A stretch of DNA of 64,000 nucleotides, from contig JAJQJM010000001.1 in assembly GCA_021323475.1 (NCBI GenBank), positions 141-64,140 on the forward strand. The letters are read 5' to 3'. A program made the translations under genes and the position numbers. A model generated the notes under the pieces. The model had not been told where the DNA came from and did not search any database. It saw nothing but the letters and a program-made list of their open reading frames with translations. Origin of the DNA: Vampirovibrio sp. (GTDB taxonomy: Bacteria > Cyanobacteriota > Vampirovibrionia > Vampirovibrionales > Vampirovibrionaceae). This document shows, piece after piece, positions 47,167 to 49,074 of the stretch (the stretch's first letter is position 1; each line of letters begins with the position of its first letter).

Positions 47167-47440
47167 CTGCTGTCTCCTAACTGTAATTTGCGCTCTCCAA
47201 AACCTGTGGGAAAATCTGGAAATTTAATTTGCTGAATTGCTGATTCGATTGAATTTGCTGTAATTAGCGATACTTAAATCTCTTTGCACCTTATTAATCT
47301 GTTTGAATCTCTCTAATCCGCTTGCTCTCTCTAAATGGAACCGGGCCTTCGGCATCCTATCCGGCATGACTAGCTGAACTTGTCAGCTATGCCATACCGC
47401 CAATAGGATGATGGATTTCTCAGTATGGCTTGCGTTAGCC

Positions 47441-47565
47441 AACCGAAATAAAACCATTACAACAATCGATTTCTCTCTGTTGTTGCCCTCCAATTTCTTC
47501 TATATAAATAAAAACATTTAACAAGGCAGAATTGCCTCTTTCCGTACATCTGTTACGTTTGGCAA
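47441..47565. promoter_or_regulatory. conserved upstream element, copy 1 (~300 bp upstream of repeat gene 1)
   Basis: Near-identical to 48921..49035; core TCTCTCTNNTGTTGCCCTCCAATTTCTTCTANNNAAATAAAAACATTTAA. Confidence 0.5.
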
Positions 47566-48202
47566 AATACACGCCATAACCAAGCAGGCAACAACCTTGG
47601 GCCGGTCATAATTCCCAACACCTGAACTAAACGCTGTAGCCACACAGTTGAGATGGCTGATTTATCTATCAGCCCCTTAATTTTTAACGCTCTAAAAATA
47701 TCAAAACCCTCCCATTCTGTGCATTCCCAGCAATTTCAAAGGTCAGCAACGCCATTTGAACCCAAGACTATCAACCGGCCTGAGCGATACATAGTCCGGT
47801 TGAAAATGGCGGTTTCTCTTTAGAGATGGACCTACCTATATTCCGTCTACGCGGGAATAATGCCCCTGAAAAAAGGTTGTAATCTGCGCATTACGGAAAT
47901 GCGTTCGAGAAAATAATCAATATTCTGTTATGGTAGACAGCCTGGTAATTAGGCATCCTTCTTACATGCTCCCTTACCGCCGACCTATGGTAGTCCGGTA
48001 ACATGATCGCTTTTATGGAGGCGATGCTCCCAATGAAATTACCTCAACAGAAAACCGGCAATTTATAAATAATTCACCCTAAGAAAAGCGCGCCAGGCTT
48101 CTCTCATGCCCTCTCAAACACTCCATAGCCTTCTTTCATATAAGGCCTTCATCTCTTCATTTATTAGACCGCCAATACAAGTCTAGCCAAGCCACTAAGC
48201 AA

Positions 48203-48230
48203 CAGGGCAGCCGTTTACACGACTGCCCTG
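48203..48230 (-). terminator. hairpin terminator downstream of repeat gene 2
   Basis: CAGGGCAG…CTGCCCTG stem immediately after the stop codon. Confidence 0.4.
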
Positions 48231-48250
48231 TAAATTTACTTGGAGTGCTA

Positions 48251-48718
48251 TTAGTAGCCTCCGCCGCCACCTCCTGCATTGCCCGCGTTACCGGCATTGC
48301 CTGCATTTCCGGCGTTGCCCGCGTTACCTGCATTGCCTGCGTTACCCGCATTTCCGGCATTACCTGCGTTTCCGGCATTGCCTGCGTTACCCGCATTTCC
48401 GGCATTACCTGCGTTTCCGGCTTTGGCATTGCCACCCAAAGAACCGCCGAATGCATTGCCGGCACCGGCACCGCCGCCGCCCATAATTGTGCTCAGCAAC
48501 TGAACAATCATGGAGATCATCGGCAACATCAGGCCAGCCATACCACCGGCATCTAATGCGCTTGGTTTGGCGGCAGCATTACCCGCTAGCGGACTCGGCG
48601 CTCCCAGGATACCGCCAGCATTACCAGCTAGCGGATTCGCCGCGGCAGCGGGCTTGACTAGAGAGGCAGCTCCAAGGCCCCCTCCTGCGCCTGTAAGCCC
48701 TCCTACAGAATATCCCAT
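48251..48718 (-). CDS. (Gly-Asn-Ala)n collagen-like tandem-repeat protein, small paralog
   Basis: 155 aa with an AAGGAGA RBS. N-terminal Gly-rich LVKP segment like the C-terminus of the large paralog. Hydrophobic helix [23 protein letters not shown], then ~19 GNA triplets, ending GGGGGGY. Confidence 0.7.
48277..48424. repeat. tandem 9-bp repeats encoding (GNA)n in gene 2
   Basis: Repeated cattgcctgcgttacccgcatttccggc units. Confidence 0.85.
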
Positions 48719-48920
48719 ACATTACTCTCCTTTAATTTGCGCTCTCTTTAACATTCACTAAACACATCGATTTATTTCAAAATCCGCACTGAACCTTAAT
48801 GGGGAAATAACTGCCCTGAATGGAAGACACGCTGAATGAATCAGCATGTCCATCCATTACAGGATTACTAGCTTGCTTCTCTCTCTCTCCGATTTTTCGT
48901 CACGTTGACTGATCGTGAAT

Positions 48921-49035
48921 ACCGAAACAATAAATCGTTTTCTCTCTACTGTTGCCCTCCAATTTCTTCTACAGAAATAAAAACATTTAAATGTTTGGAA
49001 TTGCTTCCCGAAACGATTTGTTACGTCATAGTGTT
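48921..49035. promoter_or_regulatory. conserved upstream element, copy 2
   Basis: See the copy at 47441..47565. Confidence 0.5.
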
Positions 49036-49074
49036 CTGTTGGCGGCAAGGCCTGGGGTAAGATAAAGCGTACGG

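Follow-up and report, generated by a model that had tools for sequence, protein, structure and literature searches.

FliA (sigma-28) reads class III flagellar promoters with the bipartite consensus TAAA-N15-GCCGATAA, and FliA-type promoters also precede attack-phase genes of Bdellovibrio. At the RNA level, small RNAs (sRNAs) rich in C and U pair at or near the Shine-Dalgarno sequence (SD) of their targets; they include RsaE/RoxS and RNAIII of the Firmicutes, Yfr1 of the cyanobacteria and sRNAs derived from 3' untranslated regions (3' UTRs). The leader of hag, the flagellin gene of Bacillus subtilis, is controlled by CsrA. STAB-SD and polypurine stabilisers were reportedly described by Agaisse and Lereclus in 1996 and by Hue and colleagues in 1995. 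SD-like stabilisers of the mRNA 5' end comprise the STAB-SD of Bacillus thuringiensis cry3Aa and a polypurine type in B. subtilis phage SP82 and mycobacterial katG (PMC12970973, PMC2358910). Here, we analyse a stretch of 64,000 nucleotides from a Vampirovibrio sp. contig (JAJQJM010000001.1; hereafter the window), in which two neighbouring repeat-protein genes, geneA and geneB, are each preceded by a copy of the same upstream module, a promoter-like element joined to the first ~50 nt of a leader.

The Vampirovibrionales are a predatory, non-photosynthetic sister lineage of the cyanobacteria. To our knowledge, almost nothing is known about gene regulation in this order, and a literature search for a Vampirovibrio transcriptome yielded nothing usable. 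On balance, we lean towards a reading in which the module comprises the promoter and the start of the transcript in each of two units that arose by an ancient duplication in a Vampirovibrionales chromosome.

The duplicated module and its bipartite element

The regions upstream of geneA and geneB were aligned pairwise. The best local alignment, which joins the two module copies listed in Table 1, spans 106 columns at 80% identity and scores 52, against 11.2 +/- 1.5 (maximum 16) for shuffled controls. Within it, an ungapped core of 58 nt (47464-47521 / 48933-48990) reaches 91% identity, and the 22-mer TGTTGCCCTCCAATTTCTTCTA is found in these two copies only in 64 kb, with 0 occurrences expected. 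The second-best alignment is a 17-mer adjoining each ribosome-binding site (RBS; CTnTAATTTGCGCTCTC at 47181-47197 / 48730-48746). Outside these shared islands, the A and B leaders are unalignable. An initial annotation of this DNA had described a nearly identical element of ~110 bp located 280-400 bp upstream of both genes, a shared sequence around each RBS, and a duplication unit consisting of promoter, leader and gene. The element is real, and its distance is about right for geneA (284-392 nt upstream of the ATG), but the geneB copy lies nearer, at 200-308 nt; the sequence next to each RBS is indeed shared, and the proposed composition of the duplication unit is supported.

The module contains the bipartite element GGCAATT-N13-TGTTTTTATT. 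In the window, GCAATT-N13-TGTTTTTATT has 3 matches where 0.1 is expected, all on the minus strand and located before geneB, geneA and geneC, the last being an open reading frame (ORF) of 105 amino acids (aa) that follows geneA. The 10-mer TGTTTTTATT itself is matched 4 times (0.2 expected), always within the cluster and on the minus strand; the fourth match stands alone upstream of a gene for a small acidic protein of 76 aa, the L007 ortholog of which is also preceded by a TGTTTTTATT box. With the full element before geneB, geneA and geneC and its second half before the 76-aa gene, four consecutive genes therefore share the element. A 52-column position weight matrix (PWM), run over the window and over ~157 kb of related loci, returned no further site of at least 12 bits.

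Homologous loci, referred to by L numbers, were obtained in two ways. A scan of species-representative genomes yielded ten loci, nearly all from Vampirovibrionales / Candidatus Melainabacteria and including Vampirovibrio chlorellavorus NCIMB 11383 (L012), and a DNA-pattern scan of metagenomes yielded three further contigs. A JGI metagenome contig (L001), on which geneA is encoded identically, matches the window at 100% identity over the aligned region 47100-49100 and adds nothing. In eight genomes, the core GGCAATT-N13-TGTTTTTATT precedes a non-redundant set of 17 homologous transcription units, with its spacing fixed, and the ~220 kb scanned contain no copy elsewhere. It is always on the gene strand and, in tandem arrays, it often occurs once per gene. 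Loci with the element upstream of homologs are L003/L009, L004/L007, L006, L008, L010, L011, L012, L014 and L015. The consensus of the 17 non-redundant sites, aaa.AGGCAATT-N13-TGTTTTTATTtt..Ta.aAg, contains 45 bits.

The element is probably a dedicated promoter, because its spacing is fixed, its strand and position follow those of the genes, it comes after terminators, its second half is T/A-rich and resembles a -10 region, and a (T/G)AAG is conserved 7-10 nt downstream across sites. The terminators, hairpins followed by a T-run, belong to the upstream genes and end 50-80 nt before the element in L012_2, L014_2, L014_3 and L011_2; the flank directly 5' of the element is A-rich. The -10 region would lie inside TGTTTTTATTnn and could be read as TGn+TTTTAT, which is without A at position 2, or as TATTnT, which fits most of the 17 sites; in the latter register, geneA has TATTTA and geneB TATTTC, both lacking the T at position 6. 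Transcription would start at the conserved (T/G)AAG. From the geometry of the -10 region and the position of (T/G)AAG, we predict starts at 48967-48970 for geneB and 47498-47501 for geneA; the corresponding positions are ~45608-45611 and ~44326-44329 for the other two copies in the window, and about 8936-8940 and 9666-9670 in L012. A consensus scan of the minus strand between 45400 and 49200 retrieved no sigma-70-type promoter (TTGACA-17-TATAAT), and none between the module and the geneA or geneB ATG. At 16-18 bp, no -35 hexamer resembling TTGACA was seen; the invariant upstream block there is GGCAAT(T). Since GGCAATT is not a known -35 consensus, the element is presumably recognised by an activator or an alternative sigma factor.

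Two other readings of the element were tried and rejected. TGTTTTTATT as part of a terminator finds no conserved hairpin before the box across the 17 sites, and sigma-54, hrp-box, PmrA and NtcA/CRP-type readings, compared by eye with the consensus sequences familiar to us, do not fit. Separately, both copies of the element are preceded, some 15-25 nt before GCAATT, by the string ACGTAACA (minus strand, 47551-47558 and 49019-49026). About seven other units have CGTAA(A/C)A-like strings at a comparable position, and the string may be an UP-like element or an upstream activator site.

Leaders and the age of the duplication

How old is the duplication? Between the window and L007, identity at 4-fold sites is 0.54 for mutY, 0.39 for geneA and 0.44 for geneB, i.e. 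near saturation. Between the same genomes, and also between the paralogs, the module is almost invariant. Over the first 100 nt, the A leader is 0.83-0.84 identical to its orthologs and 0.75 to the B leader; over the next 100 nt, the corresponding values are 0.66-0.68 and 0.55-0.59. The B leader is closer to its ortholog only in the second 100 nt (0.66 versus 0.57-0.59). Orthologs also keep type-specific substitutions, CAACAAC in A and CAACAGT in B, and A- and B-type genes, each with the element, are present in other genomes including that of V. chlorellavorus NCIMB 11383. Near-saturated synonymous sites, a near-invariant module and leaders that group by type therefore indicate purifying selection acting on an ancient duplication, and the conserved islands amid diverged leader sequence are a signature of selection. 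Judged from these sequence comparisons, the similarity between A and B is due to selection on an ancient duplication and not to recent copying or cassette exchange.

Counted from the predicted starts, the leaders would be about 250 nt long for geneB and 335 nt for geneA, and predicted leaders exceed 100 nt in 17/17 units; we consider it likely that the long leader is real. On the mRNA strand, C makes up 18.2% of the leader of geneA and 14.5% of that of geneB, the mean over the window being about 26%. Purines account for 56% in both. Across the 17 homologous leaders, C ranges from 6 to 22% and purines from 50 to 60%. The base bias is mild only. The initial annotation had pictured these leaders as almost devoid of C and as long, unstructured, purine-rich tracts; neither description holds, the second being contradicted by the rod hairpins of 49 and 58 nt described below and in Table 1.

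A subset of leaders, the GGAGGG-clade, comprises those of geneA, geneB, A and B of L004/L007, L009 unit 1, L010 and L011 unit 1. Transcripts of this clade would open with an invariant GAAGAAAUUGGAGGGC, so that an SD-like GGAGGG would be found 7-12 nt after the predicted start, 237 nt (geneB) and 320 nt (geneA) from the ATG. GGAGGG is invariant in A, B and their orthologs (9 units), yet no ATG, GTG or TTG is found within 19 nt downstream of it in 9/9 units, and ORFs further on are unconserved; we refer to it as an orphan SD. Its GGAGG matches the SD core in full; for this, a CCUCC anti-SD core was assumed, the 3' end of the 16S rRNA being outside the window. GGAGGG is absent from L012, L014, L015, geneC and others. 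GGAGGG and the rod are not universal, and are therefore not essential to the whole family.

Hairpins follow the orphan SD. A small one, CAACAA..UUGUUG (CAACAG..CUGUUG in L007B), comes first, and rods of 20-26 bp are predicted in the clade, with z between -3.8 and -6.7 in 6/7 leaders. The geneA rod is built from an outer stem CAUCCUAU/AUAGGAUG, a middle stem CGGUAUGGC/GUCAUGCCG and an apical stem AGCUGA/UCAGCU. Among the 4 orthologous or paralogous copies of the B-type rod, 22 pairs form the consensus, 4 of which show compensatory double changes; sliding the partners lowers the share of paired cells from 91% to 33-51% and the covariation score from 0.33 to 0.05-0.10. The A-type rod has the same architecture in L004A, L007A and L011_1. 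It is mostly invariant, with G-U transitions, and the apical stem is replaced in L011_1. The loops of the rods (UUCAU, CAAGU, UUGAU) are without GGA. Taken whole, group-I leaders have z values of -1.9 to -3.7, and leaders without GGAGGG are near 0. Several motifs are enriched on the sense strand only: GAGAGA in 14/17 leaders (1.4 expected), GAGCGC/GCGCAA in 9-11/17, TTTCCC in 6/17 and GGAGGG in 7/17. Rfam 15 gave 0 matches at gathering thresholds in the whole window and 0 at E <= 1 in 45400-49100. The leaders are selected, structured RNA and not unstructured purine tracts, and it is reasonably likely that they have a post-transcriptional function.

Some observations on the leaders stand apart. 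The geneB leaders of two near-identical strains (96-99%) differ by one GA unit, (GA)6 versus (GA)5 (L004:~1770-1785 versus L007:~8700-8715), which hints at slipped-strand length variation in an untranslated leader. Leaders also contain repeated copies of GCAA(A)TT, the word that forms the upstream half of the element, and nearly all are in sense orientation (17 sense versus 2 antisense, 8-fold over background); the geneA leader (47167-47463) contains CAGCAAAUU/CAGCAAUU three times at 47232-47258. In the 'V. chlorellavorus Umea1' metagenome-assembled genome (MAG), L009:9358-9700 (= L003:9427-9769) is a unit of promoter, GGAGGG and rod hairpin with no gene after it; a second promoter element and then a geneA homolog follow. 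This gene-less unit is either a leader that remained after loss of geneB, leaving tandem promoters, or a free-standing non-coding RNA. Small ORFs within the leaders (45-47 aa in the geneA leader, 78 aa over the geneB module) were dismissed, being unconserved in L004/L007. Sequestration of the SD was likewise set aside: whole-leader folds are inconsistent, with the probability that the SD zone is unpaired ranging from 0.2 to 0.9.

The RBS-proximal box, a complementary candidate RNA and the gene cluster

The leaders end in a conserved box, GAGAGCGCAAAUUA, that abuts the real SD. Its context is (U)UUU-AGAGAGCGCAAAUUA-AGGAGA, and its conservation ahead of genes of both types is order-wide. On the mRNA strand, the 15-mer at this place reads AGAGAGCGCAAATTA in geneB and GGAGAGCGCAAATTA in geneA. 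A third copy of the 15-mer, in the opposite sense, is located 3-5 kb downstream, at 43789-43803, in a 415-nt spacer that separates the 76-aa gene from a methyltransferase gene.

This third copy falls within a non-coding stretch (43623-43940, minus strand) that we consider a candidate sRNA or functional 3' UTR. Of this stretch, ~300 nt are 90-98% identical to L007, against 39-54% at the 4-fold sites of the flanking genes. An intrinsic terminator with a 9-bp stem and a T-run ends it (43623-43668); the scan tool omits this terminator because its loop has 13 nt. A 47-codon ORF within the stretch differs at 4 first, 10 second and 8 third codon positions, with 12 non-synonymous and 4 synonymous codon changes, and is therefore not evolving as a protein. 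Searching 43500-44450 against Rfam gave chance-level matches only (E >= 0.66, far under gathering).

In the consensus fold, a hairpin at 43784-43804, CACAU[UUGCGCUCUCU]AUGUG, presents an 11-nt loop that is the exact complement of the RBS-proximal box, and the enclosing helix has two compensatory double substitutions. Perfect complementarity to the initiation regions extends over 13 nt for geneB (-29..-17) and 12 nt for geneA (-31..-20), more than for any other of the 56 gene starts compared; the next has 10 nt and the remainder 9 nt at most. The loop is also the longest same-strand complement of the geneB and geneA RBS regions in the 64-kb window (0.05 and 0.18 expected). The L007 orthologs have 11 nt of complementarity each. 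In the L008 paralog, which is in a second locus of the same MAG, the box is at the 5' end of the leader and has 12-nt complementarity to that genome's copy of the RNA. The candidate RNA has several CU-rich stretches (UUGCGCUCUCU, CUGCUCUCU, CGCCCUCUCCUUUU, CAUUCGCUCUCC); others than the loop complement the geneB SD, AAAGGAGAG, and a UUUUCCC motif of geneC. The initial annotation had loosely mentioned a riboregulator among its options, and a perfectly complementary loop in a conserved non-coding region nearby lends that option some support. Pairing of the antisense loop with the box is a promising lead, though still a tentative possibility. A second pairing, although strong in L007 (-23.9 kcal/mol, 0/500 shuffles), was discarded because it lacks species specificity in the window. 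So was ranking by RNAduplex on long sequences, which gave meaningless long-range duplexes.

Table 1 Features of the repeat-protein cluster (positions in the window; MFE, minimum free energy)
Feature	Position	Strand	Remarks
geneB	48251..48718	-	155 aa; Gly/Ala-rich N-part, Met/Leu/Gln-rich hydrophobic segment, (Gly-Asn-Ala)x17, GGGGGGY end
geneA	45973..47166	-	397 aa; conserved ~170-aa all-helical domain, hydrophobic segment, (Gly-Asn-Ala) arrays, GGGY end
geneC	45128-45445	-	105-aa ORF, next gene after geneA
76-aa gene	43977-44207	-	small, acidic (MSFTPDPKALVYSELQFVS...); counterparts L007:11526-11756, L012:11535-11738
Methyltransferase gene	41469-43562	-	Eco57I/MmeI/BREX-PglX-like N6-adenine methyltransferase
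geneB module copy	48918..49026	-	promoter-like element + first ~50 nt of leader
geneA module copy	47450..47558	-	
geneB element	48976..49005	-	AGCAATT-N13-TGTTTTTATT; exact pattern match; PWM 53 bits
geneA element	47507..47536	-	GGCAATT-N13-TGTTTTTATT; exact pattern match; PWM 61 bits
geneC element	45617..45646	-	third copy, without GGAGGG module; upstream of 45128-45445; PWM 50 bits
Fourth TGTTTTTATT box, alone	44335..44344	-	128-137 nt upstream of 76-aa gene; promoter scan pairs it with TTGAAA (16 bp) as sigma-70-like
geneB orphan SD-like GGAGGG	48955..48960	-	predicted 5' end of leader, inside invariant GAAGAAAUUGGAGGGCAAC
geneA orphan SD-like GGAGGG	47486..47491	-	predicted 5' end of leader
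(GA)6 tract in geneB leader	48877..48891	-	
geneB rod hairpin	48815..48863	-	49 nt, 21 bp, two bulges, apical GCUGA/UCAGC; MFE -31.7 kcal/mol, z = -6.7
geneA rod hairpin	47353..47410	-	58 nt; MFE -36.5 kcal/mol, z = -4.8
geneB box AGAGAGCGCAAAUUA	48733..48747	-	directly 5' of SD AAGGAGAG (48725-48732)
geneA box GGAGAGCGCAAAUUA	47184..47198	-	5' of SD UAGGAGAC (47172-47179)
Candidate regulatory RNA	43623..43940	-	own gene or 3' UTR of 76-aa gene; non-coding; terminator 43623-43668

Both repeat proteins contain uninterrupted (G-N-A) triplets, x17 in geneB and x27 in geneA. The Gly-X-Y triplets are GNA in the window and GNT or GDT/GDA in other genomes (L012, L014, L016). The Pfam Collagen model scores 23.2 bits for geneB and 16.6 bits for geneA, with a cut-off of 27.2, the NCBIfam Scl matches of the repeat proteins fall far under cut-off, and searches of Pfam, NCBIfam and PDB sequences gave no family match for the regulated proteins. 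Given the triplets, the Met/Leu/Gln-rich hydrophobic helix and the GGGY end, they are possibly collagen-like or harpin-like fibre proteins. In geneA, the conserved ~170-aa domain occupies residues ~46-229 (46480-47031, minus strand) and contains the motifs IVxGYAAEF, VASRYKNAGGNYxNG and GVGxxDVxT. Its AlphaFold2 (AF2) model is confidently all-helical, with a predicted local distance difference test (pLDDT) score of 82. This N-terminal domain is rare: an exhaustive profile search returned 72 representatives among 1.84 billion proteins, and word-indexed homology searches matched P0001, P0004 and P0005 only. The length of geneB varies between strains (155 aa in the window, 142 aa in L004, 149 aa in L007). 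The JGI call of geneB (L001:4864-5154) starts at an internal codon and yields only 96 aa; the complete ORF has 155 aa and an ATG with the strong SD AAGGAGAG, and orthologs align from this ATG.

The order mutY - geneB - geneA - 67-76-aa gene - Eco57I/MmeI-like methyltransferase is syntenic in several relatives' loci, and the neighbours of the cluster are housekeeping genes (haem synthesis, glcDEF, enoyl-CoA hydratases); the cluster is therefore part of the core chromosome. The small protein of 67-76 aa, conserved immediately after the repeat-protein genes, matches no family; its gene carries a TGTTTTTATT box of its own, and the product might serve the repeat proteins as a chaperone or partner. 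Synteny between the cluster and the methyltransferase gene extends across the order (L007, L009, L012). The parts examined revealed no obvious restriction partner, and the gene resembles a conserved orphan methyltransferase more than a mobile restriction-modification system. A gene-free spacer of ~700 nt (47559-48250) separates the geneA module from the geneB terminator (about 48205-48236); its L007 counterpart is ~294 nt and essentially unalignable (36% identity). Finally, family genes are also found on contigs binned elsewhere, L011 (DATNPJ010000021.1, labelled Coleofasciculaceae cyanobacterium), which carries the promoter element as well, and L013 (labelled Anaerolineales). These are possibly mis-binned Vampirovibrionales contigs, or else cases of horizontal transfer.

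Model, alternatives and comparison with known systems

In the model that we propose, the dedicated promoter would co-regulate four consecutive units. The orphan SD at the 5' terminus, together with the hairpins, would shield the mRNA from 5'-end-dependent decay in a manner similar to STAB-SD, and such stabilisation would therefore allow a high output of the repeat proteins; by analogy with the described stabilisers, we put this forward as possible but doubtful. The RBS-adjacent box would be the docking site of a trans-acting regulator, for which the loop of the 43623-43940 RNA is the best candidate. Taken to its full extent, the model becomes a self-contained riboregulatory circuit specific to this predatory lineage, with a promoter for four units, a ~300-nt RNA the loop of which docks on the GAGAGCGCAAAU box, and an orphan SD and rods that set stability. 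In such a circuit, the last unit, that of the 76-aa gene, may also yield the ~300-nt CU-rich RNA, and the GAGAGCGCAAAU box may be found next to the SD or at the 5' end of each repeat-protein mRNA. We regard the complete circuit as speculative and, as a whole, rather unlikely.

A number of points weigh against this model. The -10 register is ambiguous between TTTTAT and TATTnT. GGCAATT resembles no -35 consensus known to us, and its distance to the -10 hexamer is 16 or 19 bp depending on the register; the block could instead bind an activator or a repressor. The start sites and the existence of long leaders are themselves inferred from sequence. GGAGGG and the rod are present in 7/17 units, and absent from the NCIMB 11383 clade and from geneC. 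As to the pairing, the anti-box (with at most 1 mismatch) is found in the lineage of the window and in L007 only, and in none of the other fetched loci; where both are present, box and anti-box are both invariant, leaving no variable position at which seed and target could co-vary. In a ranking by duplex energy in 18-nt windows, geneA comes 4th of 56 and geneB lower, GC-rich chance duplexes scoring better. The second complementary pair, between a variable segment of the RNA and the geneB leader, is without species-specific matching. Lastly, the sequences are few and phylogenetically related, and the motif counts are thus not independent.

Several alternatives to this model can be considered, two of which concern the DNA. 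The module might be a neutral remnant of a recent tandem duplication, or it might be kept identical by gene conversion and be a substrate for cassette switching between the paralogs, the switching having been suggested by the initial annotation. Tandem paralogs do share upstream sequence and repeat arrays, and the number of repeats varies by strain, as the three geneB lengths above illustrate. However, A- and B-type units with the module recur in other genomes, NCIMB 11383 among them, the module has remained almost invariant where synonymous sites are near-saturated, the other parts of the leaders are unalignable, leaving islands in diverged sequence, and leaders group by type and not by genome, with CAACAAC and CAACAGT each kept by orthologs; we find this explanation barely credible. 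A more serious alternative is that the element is an operator or enhancer and that the real promoter is elsewhere, possibly nearer the genes, which would make the leader shorter or absent. This would account for a GGCAATT block unlike known -35 elements and for the 76-aa gene, which retains the TGTTTTTATT half only and for which sigma-70-like alternatives (TTGTTT-16-TACTAT/TAATAT or TTGAAA-16-TATTTT) exist in three genomes; the GCAA(A)TT repeats in the leaders could then be several sites for one protein. We nonetheless judge it unlikely: the stretch from the module to the ATG of geneA or geneB yielded no sigma-70-like promoter, inspection of the sites revealed no consistent downstream -10 in the 17 units, and the terminators of upstream genes come directly before the element. 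Also, the leader is conserved, its motifs are strand-specific and its hairpins covary, as expected of transcribed RNA and not of an untranscribed spacer.

The remaining alternatives accept that the leader is transcribed and differ in what it would do. Unstructured purine-rich leaders bound by a regulator of the CsrA type or the ribosomal-protein-S1 type, another suggestion of the initial annotation, would be in line with a mild shortage of C, a purine content of 50-60%, the strong enrichment of GA-rich tracts and the presence of GGA inside both the SD and the 5' module. Yet neither GGA (58 observed versus 68 expected) nor ANGGA (18 versus 22) is enriched in the 17 leaders, the hairpin loops are without GGA, the leaders of the clade are more structured than shuffles, and GAGAGCGCAAAUUA and GGAGGGC are unlike the CsrA consensus known to us, all of which makes this type of target improbable. 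For a riboswitch-like element that senses a ligand or temperature and acts on translation or termination, one may invoke a long conserved 5' UTR with conserved hairpins before genes without known function; this is very improbable given that no Rfam match was obtained even at E <= 1, that the conserved structure is a simple rod and not a multi-helix junction with conserved unpaired nucleotides, that predicted folds show neither a terminator/anti-terminator alternative nor consistent SD sequestration, and that half of the leaders of the family are without this structure. Finally, the box GAGAGCGCAAAUUA, with the related GGAGGGC module, might be bound by an RNA- or DNA-binding protein or act as a translation enhancer, the complementarity of the loop being coincidental or a shared protein-binding motif. 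The box is kept in the V. chlorellavorus clade (L012, L014) where the fetched loci have no anti-box, the 13-mer is found in both orientations, as would be the case for DNA sites of one protein, and the energy ranking does not favour geneA and geneB. On the other side, the complement is placed exactly in the predicted loop of a hairpin, within an ultra-conserved non-coding stretch that has its own terminator, the helix around the loop has two compensatory changes, and it is the longest same-strand complement in 64 kb. A protein or enhancer acting at the box is thus conceivable, though doubtful.

Together, these results point to A and B units that carry a dedicated and previously undescribed control circuit rather than the leftover of a recent duplication. 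A 45-bit element that is order-wide, specific to a gene family and unlike any described consensus provides a handle on a sigma factor or activator and on its regulon, possibly a predation or attachment programme. For the Vampirovibrionales, the leaders and the complementary RNA are concrete candidates for a first set of regulatory RNAs acting in cis and in trans. If true, the circuit would combine three novelties, namely a promoter class, a family of structured leaders and an sRNA-target pair, and it would control Gly-X-Y repeat proteins, possibly collagen-like surface fibres. V. chlorellavorus NCIMB 11383, which can be cultured with Chlorella, carries the same promoter element and RBS box. 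More generally, 'footprinting' from paralog to paralog within one genome correctly flagged functional islands.

How does the locus compare with the systems described at the outset? Similar to the regulons of alternative sigma factors, an informative bipartite motif of fixed spacing precedes several functionally linked genes, is order-wide and is absent from housekeeping neighbours, but GGCAATT-N13-TGTTTTTATT is not known to match any of the sigma-28, sigma-54, ECF, sigma-32 or cyanobacterial SigF consensus sequences. The leaders share with STAB-SD an SD-like polypurine sequence far upstream of the ATG, near the predicted 5' end and without a start codon, ahead of genes that likely need high output, and a promoter located hundreds of nucleotides from the coding sequence. 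They differ in that the host is a Melainabacterium and not a Firmicute or actinobacterium, that the 5' end of geneA and geneB is predicted to be primary and not processed, and that GGAGGG lies within the longer invariant GAAGAAAUUGGAGGGCAAC, is followed by hairpins and is restricted to part of the gene family. The 43623-43940 stretch resembles the CU-rich sRNAs in being conserved, terminator-ended and CU-rich, with a loop that perfectly complements an SD-adjacent site of two mRNAs and another stretch that complements the geneB SD, AAAGGAGAG. It differs from RsaE/RoxS, RNAIII and Yfr1, to which it has no sequence or Rfam relationship, in being long (about 300 nt) and in lying within the cluster of its putative targets, where it may be transcribed together with the 76-aa gene. 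As in the hag leader of an abundant structural protein, one putative regulator site would overlap or abut the SD and another would lie upstream; here, however, GGA is not enriched and is found in none of the loops, and the leader is several times longer and has other conserved motifs. Thus, while none of the pieces belongs to a described family, each is of a known kind: a regulon promoter, a 5' UTR stabiliser and an SD-adjacent sRNA pairing.

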